Shown one piece after another: positions 2,089-18,123 of a DNA stretch of 64,000 nt (position 1 is its first letter; every line of letters begins with the position of its first letter). The translations under genes and the position numbers were made by a program. This stretch comes from Apibacter raozihei. Its GTDB lineage: Bacteria; Bacteroidota; Bacteroidia; Flavobacteriales; Weeksellaceae. The stretch lies in assembly GCF_004014855.1 (NCBI RefSeq), contig NZ_CP034930.1, positions 2,025,716 through 2,089,715 of the forward strand, in the 5' to 3' direction. Below the pieces are notes generated by a model. That model was not told where the DNA came from and searched no databases. It saw only the letters and a program-made list of their open reading frames with translations.

Positions 2089-3435
2089 ATGCGTACCTTA
2101 ATAAGTAGCTATTTTCAGCTAAAAGAGAACAATACTACCATAAAAAAAGAACTGACGGCTGGTTTAATAACCTTTCTTACCATGTCGTATATTCTCATAG
2201 TAAATCCCAGTATATTATCGGAAACAGGGATGGATAAAGAAGCCTTATTTACAACTACAGCAATAGCAACTATTTTTGCTACCTTGCTAATGGGTATATT
2301 TGCCAAACTTCCGATTGCACAAGGACCAGGTATGGGGTTGAACAGTTTTTTTGCCTTTTCCGTGGTTTTAGGTTTGGGATATTCCTGGCAGTTTGCCCTT
2401 ACAGCGGTATTTATAGAAGGAATTATATTTATTCTTTTAACATTTTTTAATATCAGGGAGTTAATTGTTAAGAGCATACCGAAAGTTTTGAAAGAAGCCA
2501 TACCTGCCGGTATTGGGTTGTTCATTACTCTAATTGGTTTAAAAGGAGCAGGAATTATTGTATCTAATCCAAATACCTTAGTAAGTTTGGGAGATTTTTC
2601 CCAGCATTCAGTATGGATGGCATTTACCGGATTATTAATAACGGCTGTTTTGTTTGCAAGAAACATCAACGGAGCCATATTAGTGGGAATCGTAGTAGCA
2701 AGTCTATTCGGTTTTATTCTGGGTGATGTTGCTTTGCCTGAAACTTCTCTAATCAGTTTACCACCGTCAATCGAACCTATTTTTGGTAAAGCCATAGAGC
2801 CTATGATGACTGCCCAGGGATGGAAACAGATTTTTTCAATTGATATGTTGTTAGTGGTTTTTACTTTTTTGTTTGTCAATTTATTCGACACGGTAGGTAC
2901 CTTAATCGGAGTAGTATCTAAAATAGGATTAACCGATGAAGAAGGAAACTTTCCGCAAATGAAAAAAGCATTGTTTTCCGATGCATTAGGAACCACTGTG
3001 GGAGCCATTTTAGGAACCAGTACCATAACTTCTTATGTAGAAAGTGCTTCCGGAGTTGCTTCCGGTGGAAGAACAGGATTGACAGCCGTAGGAACTGCAT
3101 TAATGTTTATTTTAGCTTTATTTCTGGCTCCTTTGTTTTTAATGGTTCCCGCAGCTGCTACAGCACCCGCATTGATTATTGTAGGGCTGTTTATGATATC
3201 TTCGGTAGTTAAAATAAACTTTACGGATATTACCGAAGGATTACCTGCATTTTTAACTATAGCCTTTATGCCTTTTACATACAGCATAGCAGAAGGTATC
3301 GTATACGGAATGCTTAGTTATATGTTACTCAAAGTATTTACAGGAAAATACAAAGAAGTAACTCCGACTGTTTATGTAGTTTCTATTTTATTTTTTGTGA
3401 AAATAGTAATGGATGCTTCACATATATTGGGATGA
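2089..3435 (+). CDS. NCS2-family nucleobase permease (AzgA/AdeP-like purine permease)
   Basis: 448 aa polytopic membrane protein. The N-terminus resembles AzgA-type adenine/guanine/hypoxanthine permeases. Confidence 0.75.
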   Translation: MRTLISSYFQLKENNTTIKKELTAGLITFLTMSYILIVNPSILSETGMDKEALFTTTAIATIFATLLMGIFAKLPIAQGPGMGLNSFFAFSVVLGLGYSWQFALTAVFIEGIIFILLTFFNIRELIVKSIPKVLKEAIPAGIGLFITLIGLKGAGIIVSNPNTLVSLGDFSQHSVWMAFTGLLITAVLFARNINGAILVGIVVASLFGFILGDVALPETSLISLPPSIEPIFGKAIEPMMTAQGWKQIFSIDMLLVVFTFLFVNLFDTVGTLIGVVSKIGLTDEEGNFPQMKKALFSDALGTTVGAILGTSTITSYVESASGVASGGRTGLTAVGTALMFILALFLAPLFLMVPAAATAPALIIVGLFMISSVVKINFTDITEGLPAFLTIAFMPFTYSIAEGIVYGMLSYMLLKVFTGKYKEVTPTVYVVSILFFVKIVMDASHILG

Positions 3436-3503: not shown

Positions 3504-3737
3504 GTTGGGAATGGTCTATATTTGAAGGCTAATCACAACAGAAAAACCTTGAATTTGTTTTAATTCAGAGTTGGGAATGGTCTATATTTGAAGGCTAATC
3601 ACAACTGTATGTTTGTAGTCATAATAGGATACATTGTTGGGAATGGTCTATATTTGAAGGCTAATCACAACCAAAACTAGAAACTCCATAATGCCTTAGT
3701 CGTTGGGAATGGTCTATATTTGAAGGCTACTCACAAC
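3504..3737 (+). CRISPR. Type VI-B CRISPR array: 4 repeats of 36 bp (GTTGGGAATGGTCTATATTTGAAGGCTAATCACAAC), 3 spacers of 30 bp
   Basis: Repeats at 3504-3539, 3570-3605, 3636-3671 and 3702-3737. The last repeat is degenerate (CTAATC to CTACTC). The repeat begins GTTG and ends CAAC, is 36 nt with 30-nt spacers, and shares about 25/36 positions including the 3' TAATCACAAC with the B. zoohelcum Cas13b repeat as I recall it. It lies directly upstream of the cas13b-like gene. Confidence 0.92.
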
Positions 3738-3819
3738 TACCTATTTCTATATATTTTGCTCTTTTTAAATTGGTTTTTATAATAGATATACCAGAAAATA
3801 GAATCTCAAAAAAGTCTAT

Positions 3820-3860
3820 ACAGGGGAATAAAAATGTAATTTTACCCCTGTTTTCTTATT
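3820..3860 (+). terminator. Stem-loop ACAGGGG(N18)CCCCTGT followed by a T-run, between the array and cas13b
   Basis: A GC-rich 7-bp stem seen in the sequence, followed by TTTTCTTATT. It may terminate the pre-crRNA transcript. Confidence 0.4.
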
Positions 3861-3942
3861 CAATGCTGAAATTTTTTATAATCTCTAATCTGTTTTACGA
3901 TAAAATATTTTATCTTAGCTCATCGCTTGAAAATCTGTTTTT

Positions 3943-6900
3943 ATGAAAACTTTAGGGGCTTTATCTTCACATAATTACAATAATAAAAAGTATTATTTTT
4001 CCGGATTACTAAATACGGCACAGTATAATTTTAATTTAGCCTTGCAGGAGGTCAATGACCGGTTAGGGAAAAAGGGAAAAAATCCGGGGAAAACTATGAT
4101 TAAAAATATTTTTGATCAGAAAGATTCTTTTTCAACCCAAGAACGTGCAATGTATTATTTGGAAGAATTTTTTCCCTGGATTTTTTTAGTAATGAAACAA
4201 TCAGGTATAAACATACCTACGGAAGAGCAGGAAACGAAATTGCATAAAGAGGAAATTCAGCTAATACAGGAACATCTTATTTCTTTATATGAATTGCTCG
4301 ATGATTTACGCAATGAACAAACCCATTATATGCACGATCCGGTTATTATTCCGGAAGAAGTTTCGAAAATGCTGGATGCTCTTTTATTGCAGATTCTTAA
4401 AAATACCCGAAAAAAGTGTAAGGACGACGAATACCGTACATTTATAGTTAAAAAGTATCAGGAAGAATTTCAGAAAGAGATTAAAGTGCAGGTAAAAGAT
4501 AGATTTGGTAAAGAAAAAGAAAAGATAGTAACCGGAGAGGTAAAAGAAAACTATGTAATTAACCGATGTTTCAGGAAATGGATTCAAAAAGAAGGAGAAG
4601 AAGAAACACTCAGGTATTCTACCGTACAGGAAGAACAAGGAAAGTATGTTTGGTCTTCCTCAGGATTTGTTTTCTTTTTATCCTTGTTTCTACGGCGTAA
4701 AGAGCTGGAAGATGTAATGAACCATGTACCGTATTTTAAAGACAGTCGAAAGTTACTGTTTTACCTAACAAGAAAAACCTTTTCTTCTTATTGTTTCCGG
4801 GATCTAAGAAAATCCCTAAGGAGCGATTATTCCAATGACTCCCTGCTTATGCAGATGATTGAGGAATTATATAAATGTCCCGGAGAATTATACGAAGTAT
4901 TGCTTAAAGAACAAAAGCAGGAATTTATTGAAGATATAAATGAATATTATAAAGATAATCCGGAGTTTGAAGGCTCTGCAAATGAGGCGCAGGTAATTCA
5001 TCCCGTAATACGGAAACGGTACCAGGATAAGTTTCCCTATTTCGCGCTTAGGTTTATAGATGAGTATTTTAATTTTCCTACACTTCGTTTTCAGCTGGTG
5101 CTGGGGGAATATGTCACAGACCGTAGAACAAAAGAATTACAGGGGACTGCTTTGTTTACAGATAGGGTAATTTCTCAAAGAATTAGTTATGTCGGAAAAC
5201 TGTCTGAAGCGGAAATGAACAAGAAGAGAGAAGGATATACAGAAACCGGATGGAAAGAATATCCCAATCCTTATTATAAGATTGAAAATAATCGGATACC
5301 TCTTTATATTGAGTTTTCAAAAAATGAAGAACTCATTTTTAAAGAAAAGAAATTTAAATATAACACTCTTGCTAAATGGGAAAATAGAGAGATAGATAAG
5401 AGGACAGGAGAATTTAATCAGGTAAACAAGCAAAGAAGAATAACTCAGTTGGAGGAATTTAAAATCGATAATCCTAAGAAAATGAAAACACCGAATGTTT
5501 TCCTGAGTATATACGAACTACCGGCTCTTTTACACGCATTGCTTATTGAGAAGAAAACAGAAGCAGAAATAGAAGACATTATTAAGGCAAAAATAAAAAA
5601 GCAACTGACGGAAATTGCCGAAGGAAGACGGAATTTGTCAGGATTACCTAAAGGGATAAAAAAAATGCGTAATTGTAATTCCGATTTTGAAAAAAAGAAA
5701 TTAATTAGTGATATAGATAACGAAATAAAAAAAGGAGAAAAAATACTAGAAGAAGTACAGCAGTGGCTCAACCCGGTTATTAATAAAAAAGGAACAGGTA
5801 AACAGGAAAATAACAAACCTTTTTTCTCTAATACGTATAGGGGGAAATACGCCACCTGGCTGGCATACGATATCAAACGGTTTACAGGAAAAGATCATAT
5901 ACAAAACTGGAAAGGCTATCAGTTTAGCGAATTACAAACCCTATTATCTTTATATACGTTGCGTAAAGAAGAGCTGAAAAACTTTTTAGAAAAAGACCTT
6001 CAGCTTACATCCCATCCTTTTTTAAAAGAAGCGTTAAAGGCAGTTAATCTGGAAGATTTTATGGGTGCTTATTTGCGTGGCAGGCAGTTTTTTTTAGAAA
6101 AAGCAAAAAAACAAATAGGCATAAAAGGAGTAAAGAAAAGTATTTTTCAGTATTTTGAAGAACGTAAATACAAGATTTATTCTTCTAATTTGGACTATTG
6201 GGAAGAATTGTGGAAACATCCGGTAAATCTGGATAGAGGACTTTTTGATGAGCGGGGTACAGTTTACAATAAAAACAAAGAATTAAATGATCTTCAAAAC
6301 CGGGCAGCTTGGTTTTCTTTTGCAGAAACAAACCCTAAACAGCAGTTTTATCATTTCCCAAGAATATATTCAGATGAGGATATAACAAAACCGGTCACCG
6401 ATAGATATGGGAAAACAAAAGAAAAACTAATACTATTTAAATTATCTCCACAAAAAGGTTTTATGGAGCAGATTCCTTCGGATTTGAAAAAGAAGTATCA
6501 GGAAGATAAAGGAAAGGTAGAGCATCCGGAAGTGCAAAAGGAAAAAAAGTACGAAGAAAAAAAACATCCCGGCATTAATGCTTTTATAAAAAATGCATAT
6601 AAAAACGAACAGAAAATACGCAGGATTTCCCGGAATGATATTTTTCTTTATGAAATGGTAAAATACATGTTAAATAAAATTTCTCCTGCTACAGAATTTT
6701 CTTCTTTGGATAAGGTATGGCTAACCCGGATAGAAAGAGAAAAACAAGCTACAGAAGCCCGTGAACAATCTTTTAAGGAAAAGGGAGATACTTCAGAAAA
6801 TAAAATAAGACAAGATTACCTCTTGTCTTTTCCCATTACTCTCACTCTTTTTAACGATATAATTAAAGAAAAGGTTAAAATAAAAGATATAGGACGTTTC

Positions 6901-7425
6901 CGTAAGCTGGAAAAAGATGAAAGGGTACAGACGATGATTAGCTATTATACTTCCGGTTTGTGGAAGAATGACCAACCCAGCCTAACTATAAAAGAATTGG
7001 AAGCTGAGCTTGAAAGTTATCATAAAATCAGGCTTCAGGAAATATTCAAAGAAGTACATAAGCTGGAAAAAGAAATTTATGAATTTACACCCGAAGAGGA
7101 TAAAAGTAAGTTATTAGCCCGAGAGAGTTTTCCTAAATTTAAATATTATATTTCTTTTTATTTTATACCTAAAGAAGATCAGGAGGTTTTTAACGAAATT
7201 CAATTCGATAAGTATAAAAATTTGGAACAGATACCAGGAAGAAAGCCGGAATACGATCCGTATTATTTGTTAATCTTTATTCGCAATAAATTTGCCCATA
7301 ATCAGCTTCCGGCAGAGCCAATATATAAAACAGCTCTTACTTTTTTGCCTAATAATTTTAATACTTTAGCAGAATATTATCACAAATTATTTATTCTTCT
7401 GAATAATAAAAATTATAACAACTAA
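3943..7425 (+). CDS. cas13b: Cas13b (C2c6), type VI-B RNA-guided RNase
   Basis: 1160 aa. HEPN motif 1 is RNEQTH near aa 120 and HEPN motif 2 is RNKFAHNQ near aa 1120, both R-X4-H, placed as in known Cas13b. The N-terminus (YFSGLLNTAQ..) resembles the Bergeyella Cas13b N-terminus. The gene is adjacent to a VI-B-type array. Confidence 0.9.
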   Translation: MKTLGALSSHNYNNKKYYFSGLLNTAQYNFNLALQEVNDRLGKKGKNPGKTMIKNIFDQKDSFSTQERAMYYLEEFFPWIFLVMKQSGINIPTEEQETKLHKEEIQLIQEHLISLYELLDDLRNEQTHYMHDPVIIPEEVSKMLDALLLQILKNTRKKCKDDEYRTFIVKKYQEEFQKEIKVQVKDRFGKEKEKIVTGEVKENYVINRCFRKWIQKEGEEETLRYSTVQEEQGKYVWSSSGFVFFLSLFLRRKELEDVMNHVPYFKDSRKLLFYLTRKTFSSYCFRDLRKSLRSDYSNDSLLMQMIEELYKCPGELYEVLLKEQKQEFIEDINEYYKDNPEFEGSANEAQVIHPVIRKRYQDKFPYFALRFIDEYFNFPTLRFQLVLGEYVTDRRTKELQGTALFTDRVISQRISYVGKLSEAEMNKKREGYTETGWKEYPNPYYKIENNRIPLYIEFSKNEELIFKEKKFKYNTLAKWENREIDKRTGEFNQVNKQRRITQLEEFKIDNPKKMKTPNVFLSIYELPALLHALLIEKKTEAEIEDIIKAKIKKQLTEIAEGRRNLSGLPKGIKKMRNCNSDFEKKKLISDIDNEIKKGEKILEEVQQWLNPVINKKGTGKQENNKPFFSNTYRGKYATWLAYDIKRFTGKDHIQNWKGYQFSELQTLLSLYTLRKEELKNFLEKDLQLTSHPFLKEALKAVNLEDFMGAYLRGRQFFLEKAKKQIGIKGVKKSIFQYFEERKYKIYSSNLDYWEELWKHPVNLDRGLFDERGTVYNKNKELNDLQNRAAWFSFAETNPKQQFYHFPRIYSDEDITKPVTDRYGKTKEKLILFKLSPQKGFMEQIPSDLKKKYQEDKGKVEHPEVQKEKKYEEKKHPGINAFIKNAYKNEQKIRRISRNDIFLYEMVKYMLNKISPATEFSSLDKVWLTRIEREKQATEAREQSFKEKGDTSENKIRQDYLLSFPITLTLFNDIIKEKVKIKDIGRFRKLEKDERVQTMISYYTSGLWKNDQPSLTIKELEAELESYHKIRLQEIFKEVHKLEKEIYEFTPEEDKSKLLARESFPKFKYYISFYFIPKEDQEVFNEIQFDKYKNLEQIPGRKPEYDPYYLLIFIRNKFAHNQLPAEPIYKTALTFLPNNFNTLAEYYHKLFILLNNKNYNN

Positions 7426-7617: not shown

Positions 7618-7648
7618 TTGTTTAATTTCACATAAAATACTATATTTG
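7618..7648 (+). promoter_or_regulatory. Candidate Bacteroidetes sigma-A promoter (TTG at -33, TATATTTG at -7) placing the TSS at the a1 repeat of the ncRNA
   Basis: TATATTTG at 7641-7648 matches the TAnnTTTG -7 consensus, and a TTG sits about 20 bp upstream. The predicted start is near 7654, exactly where the a1 inverted repeat begins. Confidence 0.4.
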
Positions 7649-7653
7649 TTCAG

Positions 7654-7873
7654 GGTTAAAAAATACCTTGCTTTTCTGAATAAGAAAAAGATGATGTATC
7701 GTCATCGGTGAGCTATTGCTAGACATTCGGCACTACCTGCAATCTTTATGGGGAGAGTAACTACTATACGTATGGTTACGGTTCTCCTCTCCACGAGTTT
7801 AACCATACGTATAGTAGTTACTCTCTGGAGTTGATTGATATAGTCCTTAGAAAATACGAAGGTTTTTTAACCT
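7654..7873 (+). ncRNA. Retron-like msr/msd non-coding RNA: a1 (GGTTAAAAAATACCTT) and a2 (AAGGTTTTTTAACC) inverted repeats flanking small msr hairpins and a perfect 26-bp msd stem-loop (7753-7825)
   Basis: a1 at 7654-7669 and a2 at 7859-7872 are reverse complements apart from a 2-nt bulge. The arm GAGAGTAACTACTATACGTATGGTTA pairs perfectly with 7800-7825 across a 21-nt loop. A small hairpin GATGA(N7)TCATC sits at 7691-7707. The layout directly upstream of an RT gene is the canonical retron arrangement. Confidence 0.6.
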
Positions 7874-7874
7874 G

Positions 7875-7918
7875 AAAGCCCTATTTTATTGATAAATAAA
7901 ACAGGGCTTTTATTTTTA
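7875..7918 (+). terminator. Hairpin AAAGCCCTATTTTA..TAAAACAGGGCTTT plus T-run between a2 and the RT start codon (possible attenuator)
   Basis: A 14-bp stem with one mismatch, followed by TTTTATTTTTAT, about 25 bp before the ATG at 7944. Confidence 0.4.
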
Positions 7919-7943: not shown

Positions 7944-9464
7944 ATGTCTGAAAAACTAACGAAACAGCAAATTTACGACCGAATCAGAGCTACATCCAAA
8001 GATAGTTATATTTTAGAGGAAATGCAGCGATTAGGATTTTGGGAAAAAGCAGATAGTCCTCAAATTCCGGAAATCTTCATTGAAAATGAAACCAGATTAC
8101 TTCAGGAGCTCAACCAATTACTGGATAAAAATAAACAATACAGTGATCAGCTGAGCATGCTTAAGTCCATGCGAAAGGTCCGCATGAAAAATGCAAAAGA
8201 AAAAAGAGAAGTTACCCGGCAGAATAATAAATTAAAAGCGTTGGAAAAGGCCGAACGATGGCTGAAACTTCAACAGGAACAGGTTCTCTTTTTAGGAAAA
8301 GAAGTATCTAAAGGCTTAAATAATACAGAGCCGAATGTTAATTCCTTAAAAAAATTTAATTTACCCGTATTTCATTCAGTAGTTGAATTTGCTGGATATA
8401 TGGAAACTGATTTACCGTCATTACGATATTTATTATATCAGCGAAAGGTTTCTACCATAAACCACTATCATACATTTGAATTACCTAAAAAATCGGGAGG
8501 AAAAAGAAAAATTTCAGCTCCTAAATCAAGGATTAAAGCACTTCAGCTTCAGGTGCTTGATAAAATTTTAAAAAATATTCCTGTAAATGATTACGTACAT
8601 GGATTTATTCAGGGAAAATCCATAGTATCAAATGCTCAACCGCATGTAAATAAAGATATTGTAATCAACATGGATCTAAAAGATTTTTTTCCATCAATAG
8701 AATACAAAAGAGTTAAAGGACTATTTTATAAACTGGGATATTCTGAACAAATTTCAACAATGTTGGCACTGGTATGTACGCAATCAGATACCTATGAGGT
8801 GAACATGGACGGAGTTACTTATCATGTTCAGAAAGGAGCCCGATTTCTGCCTCAGGGTTCACCTGCAAGTCCTGCAATCAGTAATTTGATAGCCTACAAG
8901 CTTGATAAACGAATTAAAGGATTAGCAGAGCGACTGAATTTTACTTACACCCGTTATGCAGATGATTTAAGTTTTTCTACAACCAATGAAAATCAAAAAA
9001 ATATCCGTCAATTACTATTTTTTGTAAATCAAATAGTTGTAGAAGAAGGGTTTAAGGTTCATCCGGAAAAAACTCATATCATGAGAAAAGGGAATTTACA
9101 AATGGTTACCGGAATAGTGGTCAATCGAAAATTAAATATAGAGAGAAAAAAATTAAGAAATTTCAGAGCCTTATTACACAACTTAAATTTAAATGGATGG
9201 AAAGATCAGAAGTGGGGAAATGCTGTCCATCTTATTCATGCAGTGGAAGGATATATTCGTTTTGTTAAAATGGTTAATCCGGAAAAAGGTAAAGAATTTG
9301 CAGAAAAATTAGCAACCATAATAAAGAAACAGGGATATCCGGAAATATCGTGTCAAAAATATAACTCAAATGATACTACGGAAAAAACAACAGCTTCTAT
9401 AACAAAACCAGAGACTAATCAAAAAGAAGAAAATGACAGCCAGGACTGGTGGGATATTTTTTAA
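7944..9464 (+). CDS. Reverse transcriptase, retron/Abi-like, with a roughly 130-aa N-terminal coiled-coil-like extension
   Basis: RT motifs are visible in the translation: ELPKKSGGKRKISAP (motifs 1/2), MDLKDFFPSI (motif A), LPQGSPASPAISNL (motif B'), YTRYADDLSF (YADD motif C) and VTGIVVNRKLN (the retron-type VTG region). There is no maturase, endonuclease or Cas1 domain. Confidence 0.85.
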   Translation: MSEKLTKQQIYDRIRATSKDSYILEEMQRLGFWEKADSPQIPEIFIENETRLLQELNQLLDKNKQYSDQLSMLKSMRKVRMKNAKEKREVTRQNNKLKALEKAERWLKLQQEQVLFLGKEVSKGLNNTEPNVNSLKKFNLPVFHSVVEFAGYMETDLPSLRYLLYQRKVSTINHYHTFELPKKSGGKRKISAPKSRIKALQLQVLDKILKNIPVNDYVHGFIQGKSIVSNAQPHVNKDIVINMDLKDFFPSIEYKRVKGLFYKLGYSEQISTMLALVCTQSDTYEVNMDGVTYHVQKGARFLPQGSPASPAISNLIAYKLDKRIKGLAERLNFTYTRYADDLSFSTTNENQKNIRQLLFFVNQIVVEEGFKVHPEKTHIMRKGNLQMVTGIVVNRKLNIERKKLRNFRALLHNLNLNGWKDQKWGNAVHLIHAVEGYIRFVKMVNPEKGKEFAEKLATIIKKQGYPEISCQKYNSNDTTEKTTASITKPETNQKEENDSQDWWDIF

Positions 9465-9481
9465 TTATAAATAGTAGATAA

Positions 9482-12400
9482 ATGAAACTAGTTAAGATAA
9501 GTAAATTATATTTCAATGAAGGAAATTCTAATAAAGTTTATGAAATTGAACTGTTAGAATTAACCGCATCAGAATGCCTGGTGAATTTTCGGTATGGAAA
9601 AAGAGGAAGCAGACTCAAAGAAGGAACTAAAACGCCGGAAGTTGTTTCTCACAATGAGGCGGAAAAAATATTTCTTGCAGTAGAAAAAGAAAAATTAAAT
9701 AAGGGGTACCTTCCGGAAAAAGAACATAAAACAGAGCTATCTATTTCTGAAAGAGTATTTCCGGATTCAAAAGAAGGAATTATACTGCATAGGTTACAAG
9801 ATGCTGTTAACGGAACTCAGAGTTTCAATACACCATGGAAAACCAGTCGGGTGATATGGAAAGCAGGCTGTTATAATATAAAGCAGGCAATACCTTTTAT
9901 CATTAAGCTTGTTTTTAAAGGAGATGAGATGCAGACCTATGCTTCATTATGGGCATTAAATAAATTAAAATCAGTAGAAGCCAAAGAGTTATTCTATCAA
10001 TATTCTTTTTCGAATAAAAAGGAATATATCAGAAATATAGCCATCGAAGGGTTTTTAACTATCGCAGGTGAAAATGAACTCTTGGAGATGGAGGAAAAAC
10101 TATTACAGAGAGTTTCGGCAGAAATAAAATATTACTGGCAGATTAAAGATTATGAAGCTCTTTATCAGGAGCTTTTAAAGGATTATGAAAAAGATAAATT
10201 AACTTATATAACAGTCCTTTATCAACTTAATAAGATAAGGCCGGTATTAACCGATTATTTTTTGAAATTTTTTACAATCTGCAAGTTTCAGCCTCCCTGT
10301 TTTAAACAAATCCGTTCTGTATATAAACTGGCACAGGCTAGGAATGATTATCCGGTAGTAGCAGTATTATCATATCGGATAGAAAAAGAGCAAGGCAGTT
10401 TTAACGCATCTTACAATGATGGCTTTGATTCAGTCAAAACAGAATATCTGCCTAGTATAGACGAGGGGGAAGAAGAAATTGCAAAACAGGCATTTTCAAA
10501 ACAAACCCAAGCTTATTTTCGGAAAAATGCTCTGTATTTTCTCAAAAATACAGCCAAAGATGGAAAGAACGAATACTTAAAATTAGCAGTAAATCTTTTG
10601 TTGCAGTATAAAGAATCGGATTATTCTCCAGAACAAGAAATACCGGTATCTAATTATGGTACTTATGATTATGATAAAGAAATTTATCGTTATACTTTGA
10701 TTGATTATCCGGAGTGTTCAGAATCCGTTTTATTATTTACCATTTTATTTGGTCATTCGCCTCAGGTGTATTTAAATAATCATTCAAGGTTTATAAAAGG
10801 TAAAAGAGAAGTATATAGTCGCAGTTATTATTTTACATCCCAGATTTCAGAACATGAGGAAGATTTTTTAGAAAATACAATGGAAAGTTCAGAAGAAGAA
10901 GAAGAGGAGTTTGTTCTGCAGGAAAGTTTAAACAATGATTCTGACAAAGGAATAGTTGGAACAATCAAAAACTTTTTTAAAAATATATTAGGAGGTGAAA
11001 AAGAATTAAGACCAGAAAATAATTTACTTTCGGAACATGATGACGAACCGGAAGATAGGGATGAGAATATTACAGAATCCTTTGAAGTTGAGCCTGTAGA
11101 AAATATAAGTGATGATGAATTTGAAGAACCGGTTTTATCAGCTGTATGGGTAAGAAATGAACTTTATCCGGAATACTGGGATCAGTATCCTCAGGCTTAC
11201 ATACAATTATTATTCAAAGCAAAGATGACTCTTATCCATCAATTTGCCTTAAATAATTTGTCAGCTCATCCGCAGTATCATGATCTCTTACAGCGATTAA
11301 GTAAAGATGACATATTAGATTTATTAAACAGTGATTTCTATATACCTAATAATTTTGGACAAAGAATTATTGAAAATAAAGAAAATGATTTTAAAGAAGA
11401 CAGAGAATTTATTGCTAAAGTTTTAAATTCTAAATCAGCCATTTCAAGGAGCTGGGCATATGAAAATGTACAGTCCAACACAAAATACTATTTCGAATCG
11501 ATTGAGTTTACATTACTGGTATTGTTTAATTCAGTAAAAGATTTTAAAGAAGAGATCAACATTCTGCTTCATAGTACATCATTTGAGACAGAACGAAAAA
11601 AAGCACTGATAGGTAAGACTATTGCCGAATTACTCATTTTGTCAGATAGTAAAGAAAATAATGATATTGCTGAAGAAGTAATATCCAGGCTTAATTGTTT
11701 AGCTTCCACTGAATACGATTGTATTAACTGGCAGATTTTAGAGCAGTTGTTTTCATCAACGTTGAAAGCTAACCATATATTAGCCAGTTCAATCATCATG
11801 AAAAAATATGAAAATAAATCAATAATTGATTTACCATTATCTTTAATTGATTCATTTCTCAAGTATGAAAATAAAGACATAAGATCTAATGGCCTCTTAT
11901 TATTGAAAAAATATTCGGATACTTATCTCGTTAATAATATTAATTTTATTTTAAGTCACACGGAGTCTCAATATGAAGAAGTAGTAAAAGAAATGGTATC
12001 TCGTTTGGTTCAACTGATACGTTATAGCAAAACAACCGCTAATACAGCCTTGCGTTATTTAGTTTATGTACTTATGAGAAAGGAGAAGTTTTCCGGAGCA
12101 CATGCATATATTAACTCATTTGTTACTAATGAGTTAAAATCTAATTGGAACGAAGGATTAGCTCCAAATGATATTACTAAACTTATTCATTCGCAATATC
12201 GTAAAAGTCAAATAACTGGATATGAAATTCTTTTAAATTATAAAAAGTCAGATGATTTTACACTGAAACAGATTATTTCATTCGGAAATCATGAAATTCT
12301 AGCTTTAAGACAATGGTGTTGGAATTATTATAAAGAAAATATAAGCCGTATAAAAACCGAAAAAACAAAAGCGCTTAATTTGCTTAATTCCAGATGGGAG

Positions 12401-12910
12401 GATACCCGAAATTATGCTTTTGAGTTTTTCAGATCTGAATTCAATGAATCTGACTGGGACATGGATACTCTTTTGAGTATTATAGATTCAATTCGCCCGG
12501 ATGTTGAAAATTTTGGAAAAGAGTTAATAAAGATATATTCCGGGTCCAATTGGGATATAAAGTTTTTAACCCGTTTAAGTGAGCATCCGAGTGTACAGGT
12601 GCAGGCGTTTATAACTGGTTATTTAAATCAATACGTAGCCGGCAGGCCGGAAATAATCGGTCAGCTAACTAATTATTTTCAGACAACGCTTTCACAGGTA
12701 AATAAAGCAAGAGTTGCTAAAAACAGAATATTTAAATTTTTGCATCAGGAATCAATAAAAGATTATGAAACAGCTAAAATAGTCACTCCGCTCTTAGATT
12801 TTTTATCTGCTCAGTCAACCATACAGGATAGAGCCACATGCATCGATATTTTGACAAATATTAAAAGCTTGTATCCTCACATAGAAATGAATCTGGAAGT
12901 TAAAAATTAG
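9482..12910 (+). CDS. WGR-domain protein with a long alpha-helical repeat region (MolR-like, probably DUF4132) and an acidic low-complexity linker
   Basis: The N-terminal 80 aa (KVYEIELLE..FRYGKRGSRLKEGTK..EAEKIFLAVEKEKLNKGY) fits the WGR-domain pattern. About 1000 aa of helical repeats follow. A poly-E/D segment lies at about aa 465-545. The start is 18 bp after the RT stop. Confidence 0.6.
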   Translation: MKLVKISKLYFNEGNSNKVYEIELLELTASECLVNFRYGKRGSRLKEGTKTPEVVSHNEAEKIFLAVEKEKLNKGYLPEKEHKTELSISERVFPDSKEGIILHRLQDAVNGTQSFNTPWKTSRVIWKAGCYNIKQAIPFIIKLVFKGDEMQTYASLWALNKLKSVEAKELFYQYSFSNKKEYIRNIAIEGFLTIAGENELLEMEEKLLQRVSAEIKYYWQIKDYEALYQELLKDYEKDKLTYITVLYQLNKIRPVLTDYFLKFFTICKFQPPCFKQIRSVYKLAQARNDYPVVAVLSYRIEKEQGSFNASYNDGFDSVKTEYLPSIDEGEEEIAKQAFSKQTQAYFRKNALYFLKNTAKDGKNEYLKLAVNLLLQYKESDYSPEQEIPVSNYGTYDYDKEIYRYTLIDYPECSESVLLFTILFGHSPQVYLNNHSRFIKGKREVYSRSYYFTSQISEHEEDFLENTMESSEEEEEEFVLQESLNNDSDKGIVGTIKNFFKNILGGEKELRPENNLLSEHDDEPEDRDENITESFEVEPVENISDDEFEEPVLSAVWVRNELYPEYWDQYPQAYIQLLFKAKMTLIHQFALNNLSAHPQYHDLLQRLSKDDILDLLNSDFYIPNNFGQRIIENKENDFKEDREFIAKVLNSKSAISRSWAYENVQSNTKYYFESIEFTLLVLFNSVKDFKEEINILLHSTSFETERKKALIGKTIAELLILSDSKENNDIAEEVISRLNCLASTEYDCINWQILEQLFSSTLKANHILASSIIMKKYENKSIIDLPLSLIDSFLKYENKDIRSNGLLLLKKYSDTYLVNNINFILSHTESQYEEVVKEMVSRLVQLIRYSKTTANTALRYLVYVLMRKEKFSGAHAYINSFVTNELKSNWNEGLAPNDITKLIHSQYRKSQITGYEILLNYKKSDDFTLKQIISFGNHEILALRQWCWNYYKENISRIKTEKTKALNLLNSRWEDTRNYAFEFFRSEFNESDWDMDTLLSIIDSIRPDVENFGKELIKIYSGSNWDIKFLTRLSEHPSVQVQAFITGYLNQYVAGRPEIIGQLTNYFQTTLSQVNKARVAKNRIFKFLHQESIKDYETAKIVTPLLDFLSAQSTIQDRATCIDILTNIKSLYPHIEMNLEVKN

Positions 12911-12915
12911 AAATT

Positions 12916-14577
12916 ATGATAGTAGATTATAAATATACAGACAATACATACATAGATAACTCTTCTGCCGGAACAAAAATGAGCTTTGCTCCGGATTTAC
13001 TTCGTGAACCTACTTTTTTTACAGGTAAATTAAATAAAAAAGTAGCTTTTAGAGAAGCTATTTCTGCATTGCATGACGTAGTGGTTTCAGATTTACGATT
13101 CAAGCCTAAAGACAAAACAGAATATAAAGCCTGGGTAGCGGAGCAGGAAAAGATTTGGTTAGGGGAATATATGGCTGAGTTTGAAATTGAAGAAGTTCGG
13201 TTTCGTATAAATGAAATTAAAAAAGAACTTTCAGAATTATACGAAGAAAAAAATAAAGTCTTGGCTCCTTTCAATCAGGCTAAACAGAAGTACTTTGATT
13301 ATTTGTATCAAAATGATCCCGATGCATGGTATGTTTTAGATCCCGTTATAACCGTACATCCCGATGAAGTTTTTTTTGAATGTTTCAGTCAGGATGAATC
13401 TTCCTATGGAAAATTAAGCTGTAATTATAATGTTTTTAATGAAATAAACGAATTTAAATGCGGTACAACGAATATTGATTATTCCGCAGAATTATATGGT
13501 GAATTTCAAAAAATAAGAGGATATAAAGATACACAGTTTAGTATAGATTCTTCCGGTTTTGAAATGAAAACGACTTATGAAGAGGTTTACAAGGAAATTA
13601 AAATAGATTTGCCCGATTCCTGGGTGAGAGGTTTTTTGCAGGTAAGCACAGCCATGACATTACCTTCAGCCGTTTTCAATTTGCATCCTATGGATATTTA
13701 TAGCATTTGCCAGTATCTGAGAAGGTTCAAAGAAAAAGAAGGTCCGAGAGCTTTACGTTTTTTATTAGAACCTGATAAGCCTGTTAGATTGGTAATAGAA
13801 CCCTGGGGTAAAATTTTGACATTTTACAGATCGGTTTACCATGGGGACAGTAAAAAAGATATACGTGTATGGGGCCGAAGACGGTTATTTATTTTAGAAC
13901 GATTGATACCTATAGCTAAGAGTTTTAAGGTTTTTTTACTGGGGTCGGGAATGCCTTCGTTTTATGTGGCGGATTTAGGGGATATGTCTTTTACGTTAGG
14001 ACTTTCAGGCTGGACGGCTAATGATTGGAGCAGGTTAGGAAATTTCGATTTAATGGCTCCAAGAAACGAAGTGGATATACTGACAAAAAAAAGAGTTTTC
14101 AATAGACTTAAAGAAAGTTGGTTTGACACATCTCAGCACTTAGCTGAAAAACTAAATTTACATTCTTCCGTAGTTCAATCAGTATTGACTTCTTATACAC
14201 AAACGGGAAATGTAATTTATGATTTAAACTCGGGCGTGTACAGAATTCGTGAATTATCCAACAAGCCACTAGATATAGAGGATTTACGCTTTACCTCGGA
14301 GCAGGAAAAATTAGCTGAAGAATTGGTGAATGAAGGAAGAGTTAAAAATCTAAAATTTAAAATACAAGACAAAAAATTATTTTTAACCGCAGAAGTATAT
14401 GATAAAAACTCAGTATTTCATACCTCAGCTGTAATAGATAATGATCAGCGATTAATTGATGCTCAATGTGATTGTGATCATTTTAAAAGGAATCGTCTAA
14501 GAAAAGGACCCTGTGAGCACATATTGGCAATTCGTTTACAATATCAAAAAAATAAAATTTACGCTAATAAAATGTAA
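12916..14577 (+). CDS. SWIM zinc-finger domain protein (YehQ-like)
   Basis: The C-terminus has CDCDHFKRNRLRKGPCEHILA, a C-x-C-x(n)-C-x-H SWIM signature. The start is 6 bp after the WGR-protein stop, consistent with an operon with the RT. Confidence 0.6.
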   Translation: MIVDYKYTDNTYIDNSSAGTKMSFAPDLLREPTFFTGKLNKKVAFREAISALHDVVVSDLRFKPKDKTEYKAWVAEQEKIWLGEYMAEFEIEEVRFRINEIKKELSELYEEKNKVLAPFNQAKQKYFDYLYQNDPDAWYVLDPVITVHPDEVFFECFSQDESSYGKLSCNYNVFNEINEFKCGTTNIDYSAELYGEFQKIRGYKDTQFSIDSSGFEMKTTYEEVYKEIKIDLPDSWVRGFLQVSTAMTLPSAVFNLHPMDIYSICQYLRRFKEKEGPRALRFLLEPDKPVRLVIEPWGKILTFYRSVYHGDSKKDIRVWGRRRLFILERLIPIAKSFKVFLLGSGMPSFYVADLGDMSFTLGLSGWTANDWSRLGNFDLMAPRNEVDILTKKRVFNRLKESWFDTSQHLAEKLNLHSSVVQSVLTSYTQTGNVIYDLNSGVYRIRELSNKPLDIEDLRFTSEQEKLAEELVNEGRVKNLKFKIQDKKLFLTAEVYDKNSVFHTSAVIDNDQRLIDAQCDCDHFKRNRLRKGPCEHILAIRLQYQKNKIYANKM

Positions 14578-14931: not shown

Positions 14932-15492
14932 ATGAAAAAATTTTTTTTAACCCTCTCAAGTATTTTTATCATAAGCTTTTTGCCGGCACAGGTGAGAGGT
15001 TATGGACAAAAATACAAAAAACCAAAAATTTCAAATTCCACGAATAATTCAAATAAAAAGGATAATATAAATGATCCCTTCGCTGCTGAAGATTGGGCAG
15101 ATGCTAAAAAATTTGCTGATAAAGTGGCAGGTGCTTCAGGAAAATATGTATTCCTTCAAAAAAAAGAATCGTCTACTCCAGGAGTCATAGTTTTAAGGTA
15201 TATTCCGACAAGTATCAGCAATAAAGATTTCTATATAAATAAACCTTGTGCTGAATGTATGGACATAGAATTCAAAAAGAATAATTCTTCTAAATATAAT
15301 TATGCATTTAGCCATGTCTGGGGAAACTTTGCAGACTTATTCCCTGTTTGGAAATCTATATTTAGTCCTAATGCTCAAATGTCTGATTATTCAGTGAGCG
15401 ATCAAAACGTATTGGTTCAATGGCGAACGTCTTACGGTCAAAATCAGGTAACTTTTGGAAGGCTGGGTACCGCCTGGTTTATTAAAATATAA
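14932..15492 (+). CDS. Hypothetical secreted protein (signal peptide)
   Basis: An N-terminal hydrophobic signal peptide; no recognisable domain. Confidence 0.45.
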   Translation: MKKFFLTLSSIFIISFLPAQVRGYGQKYKKPKISNSTNNSNKKDNINDPFAAEDWADAKKFADKVAGASGKYVFLQKKESSTPGVIVLRYIPTSISNKDFYINKPCAECMDIEFKKNNSSKYNYAFSHVWGNFADLFPVWKSIFSPNAQMSDYSVSDQNVLVQWRTSYGQNQVTFGRLGTAWFIKI

Positions 15493-15520
15493 CGTTAGAT
15501 ATAATAGTTAAAATTATAAA

Positions 15521-15565
15521 AATACCCGATTGAAAATTTATACATAAATTTTCAATCGGGTATTT
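15521..15565. terminator. Bidirectional terminator: perfect palindrome ACCCGATTGAAAATTTA..TAAATTTTCAATCGGGT
   Basis: A 17-bp perfect inverted repeat between convergent genes (the 14932 ORF and proA), flanked by T-runs. Confidence 0.65.
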
Positions 15566-16819
15566 TTATATTCGTATCTGACCATTGCCTTCAATGATCC
15601 ATTTATAAGTGCACAGTTCATCTAAGGCCATAGGGCCACGGGCATGCATTTTTTGAGTACTGATACCGATTTCAGCTCCCAGACCGAATTGGGCTCCGTC
15701 TGTGAAAGCAGTAGAGGTGTTTGAATATATGCAGGCAGCATCAATCAGTCTTTCAAATTTATGTATTATTACTACATTTTCACTAATTATGGCTTCACTA
15801 TGTTTGGAACTGTAAGAAGATATGTGTTGAATAGCCTCGTCAAAACAAGTAACGGTCTTAATTGCCATTTTATAATCCAAAAATTCCGTCCCATAACTTT
15901 CCGCATTTGCTTCTTTTAATAAATCAGCTGGATAGCTATCATATAAAGCCTTGTGAGAAAGCTTATCCGCATAAATAATGACATTCTTTTCCTGAAGTTT
16001 TTTACATAATGTAGGTAAATCTTTAATTCGTTCTTCATCTATGACCAAACAATCCAATGAATTGCAAACACTAACTTTTCGTGTTTTGGCATTGAAAATT
16101 ATATTTTCACCTTTTTCAATATCTCCATCTTTATGAAAATAGGTATGGCACACACCTGCGCCGGTTTCAATAATTGGAATTTTTGAATTTTCTCGAACGA
16201 AATTTATGAGTTCTTTACCTCCTCTGGGAATAATCAGATCCACATAGTTTCTGGCATTCATTAATTCCTGAGTAGCATAGCGTTCATTAGGTAGCAGCGT
16301 ACATATATCAGAATTATAACCTTCATCTGCAATGACTCTTCGTATTATATTTACGATAGCTGTATTAGAATTTATGGCATCGGAACCTCCTTTTAATATG
16401 CAGGCATTTCCAGATTTAAGGCATAAAGAGAAAACATCAAAGGATACGTTGGGCCTGGCTTCATAAATGATTCCGATTACTCCGAAAGGAACTGAAATTT
16501 TTGAAATTGTTAAGCCGTTAGCCAACTTTTTTCCCATAAGTTTTTTATTAGAAGGAGTTGGTAGTGAGACTACGTTTTCAATATCTTTAATGATATTAAA
16601 AATTCGTTCTTCAGTAAGTAAAAGCCGGTCATATTTTGGATTAGAACGAGACATTCTATCCAAATCTTTTTGATTTTCAATTAGTAAATAAGAAATATTT
16701 TTTTTGGTTTCCTCAATGAGTTTGTTAAGGATGCCATTAATCTGAGTATCACTCAGGAGATTTACCTGCCTGCTTGCCAGCAATGAATCTTCGAACAGGT
16801 TATTTAGTCTGGAAATCAT
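15566..16819 (-). CDS. proA: Glutamate-5-semialdehyde dehydrogenase (gamma-glutamyl phosphate reductase)
   Basis: 417 aa and ALDH-like. The stop overlaps proB by 4 bp. The sequence family is typical ProA. Confidence 0.85.
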
Positions 16820-17898
16820 AGGTTATTTTCTATATAAAGATAATCGTAGTGTACAATAGGTTTTTTATTAGCCAGACCTATTAGTTCAGTGGCTTTCACA
16901 TTGTCATAGGAAGATCTGCCCAAACCGATTTGTTTTCCATGATCATCTATAATGAGTACAATATCATCTGCTTCAAAGTTTCCTGATATTTGAGTTACTC
17001 CTACAGGTAGTATACTTACAGCTTTATCACTCAGTAAAGCTTGTTTTGCTCCAGAATTAATATGAACTTCTCCTTTTGCAAATCCCTGGGAATGAGCAAT
17101 CCATTTTTTTACACTGGAAGTTTCTTTTTTTGAAGGAATAAATCGGGTTGATGTAACTTTTTTACCTTGTATCAGGTCTGTAATTATATTTTTTGTTTTT
17201 CCATTAGCTATAATAACCTCAATACCTTCTTCAGCTACTCTTCGGGCTATATTGTATTTGGTTATCATTCCTCCTCGTCCCGTTTTAGAACGTGAAGGTT
17301 GAATATACGCTCCCATATCATCTTTCAAAGTGTCTATTTCTTGAATAAGTCTGGACTCCGGATGAGAAGGATCTCCTGTAAAAATTCCGTCAATATTACT
17401 TAAAATTAATAGCTTGTCACAATGCATCATTGCTGCCACCAAACCTGAAAGTTCATCATTATCTGTAAACATCAGTTCATTAACGGAAATAGCATCATTT
17501 TCATTAACAATGGGGATCACTCTGTTTTCCAGCATGACAGACATGCAATTTCGCTGATTCAAATAATGACGTCGGGTAGAAAAATCTTCTTTAGTGGCAA
17601 GTATCTGACCGCAGACAATTCCATGATGACGAAATAAATCATAATAGCGATTGATTAGTTTTACCTGACCGATAGCAGAATATAACTGTCGGGAAGATAC
17701 GCTGTCCAGTTTGGAAATAGTTTCTAGCTCACTTTTTCCGGAAGCCACTGCACCGGAAGATACAAGAATTATTTCCTTGTTTTTTTTATGAAGATCAGCA
17801 ACTTGATCAACAATGCAGGACATTTGAGTAATATCCAATGATCCATCCGGACGTGTGAGTACCTGGCTTCCAATCTTTATGACTATACGATCTTTCAT
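16816..17898 (-). CDS. proB: Glutamate 5-kinase with C-terminal PUA domain
   Basis: [15 protein letters not shown].. is the classic ProB N-terminus. The ORF track begins 8 codons further upstream at 17922, but the Met at 17898 is the likelier start. Confidence 0.85.
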
Positions 17899-18123
17899 AA
17901 ATTTAAATATGAATAGAAACAAATATACTATTATAATTATGAATATTTAATATAGAAAATAAAATTTATTTTAAAAATATAATGTTAAAAATAGTATATG
18001 TATTACTTTTTAAGAACCACCTATATGTTATGACAGTTCGTTTGAACCGGCAGTTGTAAAGGCTGGATAAATTATCTATCTTTGCAGCCTTAATTTAATA
18101 TACTAATAATTAAAAAAAATATA

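Follow-up and report, generated by a model that had tools for sequence, protein, structure and literature searches.

The operon and the RNA element in front of it

The 64,000-nucleotide (nt) stretch of the Apibacter raozihei genome analysed here (contig NZ_CP034930.1, positions 2,025,716 to 2,089,715; hereafter the window, numbered from its first letter) carries, on its + strand, genes for a reverse transcriptase (RT) and two accessory proteins, preceded by an intergenic RNA element at 7650-7876 on the same strand, 68-72 nt upstream of the RT start codon (7944). In the bacterial systems called retrons, a folded RNA serves its reverse transcriptase in part as template for a small hairpin DNA, and an earlier note on this DNA had proposed that the region encodes a retron msr/msd-like RNA. 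Our analysis supports that proposal: the element lies directly upstream of a retron-clade RT in a full type XIII operon, it has homologues in about 66 of 80 related loci, and we assign it, with a probability of roughly 92%, to the msr-msd gene of a type XIII (Mx162-clade) retron. In the classification of Mestre et al. 2020 (PMC7736814), type XIII equals RT clade 10, to which the earliest known retrons, Mx162, Mx65, Sa163 and Ne144, belong.

The RT (506 aa, 7944-9464, + strand) matches the PADLOC model RT_XIII at 591 bits, which makes this its top PADLOC model by about 280 bits, and contains a Pfam RVT_1 domain at residues 181-381. The RT domain begins only at about residue 170-180, leaving a long N-terminal extension as in the RTs of the Mx162 clade, a feature that has been described for myxobacterial RTs (PMC6868368). 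The translation also carries the motifs NAQPH (NAxxH), VTG and YADD, which are invariant across 20 homologues and have been defined as retron RT motifs (PMC6868368, Fig. S2 legend). The nearest solved structure is the Ec86 retron RT (E = 1e-40), the protein is 99% identical to one from Apibacter sp. HY039, and the NCBI annotation calls it "retron St85 family" only. Downstream follow a WGR plus HEAT/ARM-repeat accessory protein (1142 aa, 9482-12910, + strand; PADLOC WGR_XIII 953 bits, PADLOC HEAT-ARM_XIII 102 bits, Pfam WGR at residues 13-81) and a SWIM zinc-finger accessory protein, the presumed effector (553 aa, 12916-14577, + strand; PADLOC SWIM_XIII 770 bits over its full length, Pfam SWIM at residues 507-539). 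By the definition of Mestre et al. 2020 (PMC7736814), RT, WGR/HEAT and SWIM proteins make the type XIII protein set complete.

The SWIM protein is 100% identical to an Apibacter raozihei protein, and its zinc-finger residues C518, C520, C533 and H535 are invariant among homologues. Neither the WGR/HEAT nor the SWIM protein has a sequence relative that we could find in the PDB. An AlphaFold model of the SWIM protein based on 28 homologues was poor (predicted local distance difference test, pLDDT, 55; predicted template-modelling score, pTM, 0.32), and a Foldseek comparison of this poor model with the PDB gave nothing below E = 1e-3, with only weak, untrusted sliding-clamp-like matches over about 110 residues. 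Some JGI records call SWIM homologues 'predicted Holliday junction resolvase-like endonuclease'.

Between the stop codon of the next gene upstream (7425) and the RT start there is no open reading frame (ORF) of at least 50 aa, and this interval is where the RNA element lies. At its core is a perfect 26-nt inverted repeat (7753-7778 and 7800-7825, with 21 nt between the arms), the longest perfect one within the window. The terminal stem is formed by two shorter inverted repeats: a1, the 5' arm (7654-7669, + strand, GGTTAAAAAA-TA-CCTT), comprises an outer helix at 7654-7663, a bulge at 7664-7665 and an inner CCTT at 7666-7669, and a2, the 3' arm (7859-7872, + strand), reads AAGG-TTTTTTAACC. The two pair as 10 + 4 bp with a 2-nt bulge, and the pairing can be extended to about 7650 on the a1 side and 7876 on the a2 side. 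The a1/a2 duplex was calculated at -15.4 kcal/mol, compared to -6.2 with shuffled a2 (z = -3.8). The earlier note had placed a1, a2 and the 26-bp stem with its 21-nt loop at these very coordinates.

Within the terminal stem, the + strand reads as follows. A guanosine at 7670, the G of ACCTT-G-C directly 3' of a1, is a candidate priming (branching) nucleotide. It is followed by msr hairpin 1 at 7672-7688 (TTTTCT/AGAAAA with a 5-nt loop, from the RNAalifold consensus), by msr hairpin 2 at 7690-7706 (GATGATG-TAT-CGTCATC, found family-wide, with a recurrent U·G at 7695/7701) and by a linker at 7707-7729. The msd region (7730-7846) is an interrupted stem with lower helices 7730-7735/7841-7846 and 7738-7744/7833-7838, an internal loop and the 26-bp stem, whose apical loop (7779-7799) contains a conserved CGGT. 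The single-stranded linker TTAGAAAATACG at 7847-7858, ending in a conserved TACG, then leads to a2. Folding of 7645-7915 gave -100.7 kcal/mol (z = -8.9 versus dinucleotide shuffles) and showed a separate hairpin with a T-run at 7875-7910. Retron RNAs have been described as containing between one and three msr hairpins and a long, stable stem-loop in the msd (PMC7736814), and the two msr hairpins and the interrupted msd stem of the window correspond to that definition by covariation, as set out below.

Covariation and strand asymmetry across related loci

A scan of one genome per species, made with an alignment of RT homologues as the query, yielded 80 related loci (L001-L080) from Bacteroidota, Myxococcota, Cyanobacteria, Acidobacteriota, Proteobacteria, Planctomycetota and others. 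The seven closest relatives, with RTs 52-63% identical to that of the window, come from one Chitinophagaceae bacterium, four Flavobacterium, one Bacteroides metagenome-assembled genome (MAG) and one Pedobacter, and their elements align end to end with the element of the window. The blocks conserved in these eight sequences begin with a TAnnTTTG-like box and a1, continue with an invariant ACCTTGC, a pair of small hairpins and the long stem between half-conserved flanking helices, and close with an invariant GAAAATACGAAGG, a2 and a hairpin with a T-run. RNAalifold predicted 58 pairs from the eight sequences, 19 of them with compensatory double changes.

We built a covariance model (R1) from the same eight elements and searched it against the window and the 80 loci. 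In the window it gave a single + strand match, at 7650-7875, and minus-strand matches that were palindromic hairpins only. About 66 of the 80 related loci had + strand matches ahead of the RT, 76 in all, including Archangium, Hyalangium and a Myxococcaceae MAG; the elements recovered stand upstream of myxobacterial, cyanobacterial, acidobacterial and proteobacterial clade-10 RTs. Alignment of 78 + strand elements from the window and the related loci (A4) defined the family referred to below.

In the R1-based alignment, 91.5% of the cells belonging to the consensus structure held standard pairs, compared to 34-45% when the partners were slid by 1-3 columns; the covariation score was 0.643 versus at most 0.114 in the slid controls, and changes on both sides occurred in 52 of the 58 pairs. 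Being fitted to R1, this alignment leans towards the structure, but alignment-free hairpin searches and duplex calculations agree with it. Within the 450 nt preceding each RT, the longest perfect hairpin has a stem of 12-30 bp; in most loci its loop measures 20-40 nt and its position is comparable, and the sequences differ wholly between loci. Nearly all family members have a long msd stem, of 11-35 bp. Helix 8, which lies in the msd, is 97.5% paired with compensatory change in all 17 of its pairs. An a1/a2 duplex is found in nearly every locus; the sequences share only the inner CCTT/AAGG, which is nearly invariant, and the outer helix covaries between loci. The pairings of a1 with a2 and within the long stem, whose conservation the earlier note had left to be checked in homologous loci, are both kept through extensive compensatory change.

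The two msr hairpins are distributed differently. Hairpin 1 (helix 2) is 95.5% paired, with double changes in six of six pairs where it is present; it is specific to subclades of the Bacteroidota and missing in most distant members. Hairpin 2 (helix 3) is 98.9% paired, with compensatory change in six of its seven pairs. As to single-stranded elements, CGGT occurs on the 5' side of the apical loop in 59 of the 78 members, usually followed by a small secondary hairpin, and 75 of 78 have GAGTTGA on the 3' side of the long stem; proteins may make contact at these conserved single-stranded motifs.

Gene content and copy number vary around this common plan. A WGR protein is linked to the RT in 61 of the 80 loci and a SWIM protein in 69. 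Two gene orders occur, non-coding RNA (ncRNA)-RT-WGR-SWIM in the window and its seven Bacteroidota relatives and WGR-SWIM-ncRNA-RT in most others, including the myxobacteria. The window has a single msr-msd copy. In many of the related type XIII loci, a single RT is preceded by two or three msr-msd copies in tandem, all having an a1/a2 of their own and hairpins of different sequence (L011, 138-901; L021, 5206-5935; L045, 897-1527; L032, 2682-4341; L044, 5341-5890; also L015, L016, L031, L033, L034 and L035), and duplicated msr-msd repeats are known from Nannocystis Ne160 (PMC6868368). Short tandem repeats between the retron RNA gene and the RT were seen in L045 (1528-1735, CTTGAAC-type units), L024 (5656-6000) and L070 (767-878).

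The kind of mismatch that a helix tolerates provides a further view of the element. A helix that functions in the + strand RNA should tolerate G·U and not A·C, and the reverse should hold for a helix needed in the complementary DNA, where T·G takes the place of an RNA A·C, and C·A that of an RNA G·U. For the msd and a1/a2 the count was of isolated mismatches, with two or more Watson-Crick pairs to either side. The msd long stems contained 1 G·U, 27 A·C and 9 other mismatches over 1529 Watson-Crick pairs (binomial p = 2e-7, from counts in related sequences whose events are not all independent), and the a1/a2 outer stems 21 G·U, 6 A·C and 16 others. For msr hairpin 2, counted over all cells of the model-fitted alignment and not as isolated mismatches, the numbers were 84 G·U, 1 A·C and 4 others. 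The A·C cases of the msd occur in both orientations (16 C·A and 11 A·C), at stem positions 3-19 and in many clades, and we thus rejected the idea that they are a single inherited feature. The lower msd helices (7730-7744 with 7833-7846) also avoid G·U, except at a doubtful outermost pair. The window's own stem is perfect and adds nothing to the mismatch count, so that the argument applies at the level of the family. On this basis the msr and a1/a2 appear to behave as helices of the + strand RNA and the msd stem as a helix of the complementary strand, as expected if a cDNA (complementary DNA) hairpin is under selection; an msd that is reverse-transcribed into a DNA hairpin with a function should show just this bias for A·C over G·U.

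A stem made of Watson-Crick pairs only, with arm parts that are themselves short palindromes such as ATACGTAT at 7768-7775, could in principle act beside the RT gene as double-stranded DNA (a dyad operator or a cruciform) or as a minus-strand antisense RNA hairpin; its position would then be regulatory, and the A·C over G·U bias also fits a functional minus-strand RNA. We consider a role of this kind highly improbable. The stem sequences differ completely between loci while the pairing is kept, which speaks against an operator recognised by its sequence; the G·U pairs of the flanking msr hairpin and of a1/a2 are the behaviour of + strand RNA; msr, a1/a2 and stem form one conserved unit with a promoter and a terminator on the + strand; and no conserved minus-strand promoter or terminator was found.

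Predicted priming site, DNA product and transcription signals

The assignment as a retron RNA carries predictions for where reverse transcription would begin and end. In retrons the priming guanosine stands at or immediately after the inner end of a1 (PMC6868368). G7670 fits this rule by its position in the sequence and is invariant in the eight close relatives, so that the G which the earlier note had expected just after a1 does exist, in a CTTGC that follows a1 in 71 of the 78 family members (TTGC in 76 of 78). On the other side of the element, the block preceding a2, TACGAAGG, is nearly universal, with [AT]CGAA[GA] in 72 of 78 members. In Ec86, a1 ends in ...CCCTTA-G-C and ...CTGAC-G-TAAGG leads into a2, where the G in front of a2 stands opposite the priming G and the C ahead of it is the first templated base. 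The ...ACCTT-G-C and ...ATAC-G-AAGG of the window match this local geometry, and by this analogy C7857 is the predicted first templated base and G7858 would lie opposite the priming G.

The other end of the template was placed by comparison with Mx162, whose RNA we take to be 77 nt long with the branch at position 20, hence with 57 nt beyond the branch G. Allowing this extent, with an 8-nt overlap between RNA and DNA, plus the extra 17-nt hairpin of the Bacteroidota subclade, reverse transcription would stop near 7730-7737. The DNA product is thus probably the complement of about 7731-7857, an interrupted stem of about 125 nt that contains the 73-nt hairpin, and we would put perhaps even odds on this length being right within 10 nt. 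A DNA consisting of the hairpin of about 70 nt only, as the earlier note had proposed, appears less likely by the same analogy. Calculated with DNA parameters, the predicted molecule of about 125 nt has a folding energy of -27.9 kcal/mol (z = -7.3). For Mx162 an RNA of 71 nt that overlaps the DNA by 8 nt has been reported (PMC6868368).

Upstream of a1, a Bacteroidota-type -7 box (TATATTTG) lies at 7641-7648 on the + strand, with a possible -33 (A)TTG at 7618-7621, 19 nt upstream. The TAnnTTTG box is present as the earlier note had stated, and its value lies in positional conservation: the motif TANNTTTG occurs 122 times in the window versus 106 expected by chance, a ratio that makes the match uninformative by itself, and most of the seven closest relatives have a TAnnTTTG-like box 5-10 nt before a1 (L001-L004 and L061; L005 and L058 show variants). 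A sigma-70 promoter scan of the region did not rise above chance, and its model is not applicable to Bacteroidota. Transcription would start at about 7650-7655, near a1, whose pairing potential begins at about 7650; the earlier note had predicted a transcript beginning exactly at a1.

Between a2 and the RT start codon, an intrinsic-terminator-like hairpin (AAAGCCCTATTTTATT/AATAAAACAGGGCTTT) followed by a T-run, which the earlier note does not mention, occupies 7875-7918 on the + strand. A simple terminator scan missed it because of one internal A·C mismatch; the call that the scan did make, at 7651-7670, is spurious. The hairpin contains GC pairs and is present in all seven close relatives (L001-L005, L058 and L061) with compensatory changes, as illustrated by the arm pairs GCCCTATT/AATAGGGC, GGCCCTGTTTA/TAAACAGGGCC and GTCCTATTTTTAA/TTAAAAATAGGAC. 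It is confined to the subclade with the order ncRNA-RT-WGR-SWIM, the other subclades being without it. In the roughly 30 nt between terminator and RT start we found no promoter-like box. An arrangement of this kind would make the RNA a mostly separate, abundant transcript and leave the RT operon to be expressed by read-through.

These elements can be combined into a provisional scheme. Transcription would proceed from the Bacteroidota-type promoter just upstream of a1; most transcripts would end at the 7875-7918 terminator, and read-through would give the RT-WGR-SWIM messenger RNA (mRNA). In the RNA, a1 would pair with a2, a fold borne out by covariation, presenting G7670 at the end of the stem together with the two msr hairpins and the interrupted msd stem. 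The RT would then bind the msr hairpins, prime from the 2'-OH of G7670 and copy the msd from about C7857 leftwards to about 7731, which, by analogy with Mx162 and Ec86, would result in a branched RNA-DNA molecule with the DNA of about 125 nt as a long hairpin. The complex of this multicopy single-stranded DNA (msDNA) with the RT would presumably hold or regulate the WGR/HEAT and SWIM proteins, as retron complexes do with the effectors of other types. In our speculation, which again rests on analogy, the complex probably keeps hold of the accessory proteins and restrains them until there is a phage signal, and the WGR and SWIM/winged-helix domains, being nucleic-acid binders, could read the DNA hairpin. 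In the literature that we searched, we found no experiments on what any type XIII retron does.

Relation to known systems, neighbourhood and meaning

The window shares with the type XIII retrons Retron-Mxa1 (Mx162), Mxa2 (Mx65), Sau1 (Sa163) and Nex2 (Ne144) the RT clade with its N-terminal extension (here by model score), the same two accessory proteins, WGR-HEAT/ARM and SWIM, and a homologous RNA plan composed of a1/a2, CTTGC, an msr hairpin, an interrupted msd stem with a CGGT apical loop, and TACGAAGG before a2. It differs from most type XIII members, the myxobacterial ones among them, in its gene order and, more generally, in the extra small msr hairpin at 7672-7688 and in the conserved intrinsic terminator between msd and RT. 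Its a1/a2 is short and AT-rich, with 14 bp versus more than 24 bp in the myxobacterial retrons; the host belongs to the Bacteroidota, and the msDNA is here a prediction. Retron-Eco1 (Ec86, type II-A), the source of the nearest solved RT structure, has in common with the window the msr-msd logic and a similar local geometry of the priming site. By contrast, its effector is nucleoside deoxyribosyltransferase-like, its RT has no N-terminal extension, no terminator separates msd and RT, and its RNA shares no sequence homology with that of the window.

Several points weigh against the assignment to a type XIII retron. The evidence is computational throughout, and the mismatch counts carry the dependence among related sequences mentioned above. 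In a comparison with covariance models of the kind that the earlier note had suggested, no Rfam retron model matched the RNA up to E 10, so that membership is not confirmed by a curated model. (The one notable Rfam hit, let-7 at 29.5 bits with a cut-off of 53.5, is an artefact that any long perfect hairpin would produce.) The promoter motif by itself is not above chance. The textbook cassette is a co-transcribed msr-msd-RT unit, for which a strong terminator separating the msd from the RT is unusual. Moreover, the TTGC context of G7670 differs from the TAGC/CAGC contexts listed for priming guanosines, and five myxobacterial loci in our set read GCAGTACCTTGC, with a G in the a1 bulge, compared to the CAGC reported for Mx162 (PMC6868368). 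The bulge G of the myxobacteria is not conserved, the window having UA there, and for this reason the G of CTTGC is the only family-wide priming candidate.

Some of the same observations would suit an RNA that serves its RT by a route other than that of retrons, as in DRT2/DRT9, which likewise have an RT beside a structured ncRNA gene in a defence island and in which the ncRNA templates a repetitive or homopolymeric cDNA, without a 2'-5' branch or an msDNA hairpin. The RT has a weak match to the NCBIfam Drt2 model, the terminator separates the RNA gene from the RT as it would for a stand-alone ncRNA gene, and in the literature searched we found no characterised type XIII retron outside the Myxobacteria. 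The Drt2 match amounts to 44 bits only (cut-off 390), as opposed to the 591 bits of RT_XIII, and the RNA has all the retron hallmarks, namely the a1/a2 terminal stem, the conserved G at the stem end, the msr hairpins and the long msd stem; DRT2/DRT9 are without the a1/a2 stem, the priming G and the long msd hairpin. The element is, in addition, homologous to those upstream of the myxobacterial RTs of clade 10, where msDNA was first found (PMC7736814). We regard a DRT-like route as very unlikely and retain the assignment to the msr-msd gene of a type XIII retron.

The retron has a second defence-type system as its upstream neighbour. A type VI-B CRISPR-Cas locus at 3504-7425 comprises a CRISPR array with four 36-nt repeats (GTTGGGAATGGTCTATATTTGAAGGCTAATCACAAC) and 30-nt spacers (3504-3737) and cas13b (3943-7425; 1160 aa, NCBIfam VI_Cas13b 782 bits); no csx27- or csx28-like gene was seen adjoining cas13b, where there is only an unassigned 58-aa ORF at 3770-3946. 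CRISPR locus and retron form a small defence island, bordered on one side by a permease gene (2089-3435) and on the other by genes of the proline-biosynthesis-like kind (15566-17922, minus strand). With the element 230 nt downstream of cas13b and inside this island, it could be unrelated to the RT and represent a cas13b terminator or attenuator, a CRISPR-associated small RNA, or a repeated mobile element, a hairpin resembling repetitive extragenic palindromes (REP) or miniature inverted-repeat transposable elements (MITE). None of the 80 related loci has Cas13b, yet the element stands beside the RT in about 66 of them; it occurs once on the + strand of the window, the CRISPR repeat is unrelated to it in sequence, and its hairpin is not followed by a T-run, the separate terminator coming after a2. 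We attach next to no weight to such an origin. The absence of Cas13b from all 80 loci also led us to reject a functional link with the neighbouring Cas13b and to conclude that the adjacency of the two systems is not a functional unit. The location of the retron in the island is suggestive, and not more, of an anti-phage role. Beyond the operon, where the convergent ORFs 14932-15492 (+) and 15566-16819 (-) face each other, there is a 36-nt near-perfect palindrome between them (15506-15579, with 89% complementarity and a spacer of 2 nt), which is probably a bidirectional terminator.

Taken as a type XIII msr-msd gene, the element is an ordinary further member of the long-known Mx162-type family that will not surprise a specialist, and the general picture of retrons is unchanged by these results. 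They assign a function to an unannotated intergenic region and complete the annotation of a three-gene defence-type operon in Apibacter, in a phylum for which the literature searched holds no experimentally characterised type XIII retron. Three features are specific to the subclade of the window: the extra msr hairpin, the short AT-rich a1/a2 and the terminator before the RT. The predicted promoter, priming G7670, template (about 7731-7857) and terminator constitute a testable map, which would be useful if this retron were tried as a DNA-producing tool in Bacteroidota. The alignment of 78 elements, with its strong covariation, could seed a type XIII retron RNA family, given that no Rfam model detects the RNA, and the asymmetry between A·C and G·U is a simple sequence-only way of telling which retron RNA helices function as DNA that could serve for reverse-transcribed segments in general.

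A broader proposal, tentative and on balance doubtful, is that the template RNA of the Bacteroidota type XIII retrons has turned into a transcription unit of its own, with a separate promoter and a conserved terminator ahead of the RT, that RNA and msDNA are in large excess over an mRNA made by read-through only, that selection acts on the DNA hairpin family-wide, and that the duplex msDNA stem is the ligand of the WGR/HEAT and SWIM proteins. The tolerance of A·C and not of G·U points to the duplex stem in this role, and as no function has been demonstrated for type XIII, the oldest-known retron type, its mechanism may differ from that of the toxin-sequestering retrons studied so far.

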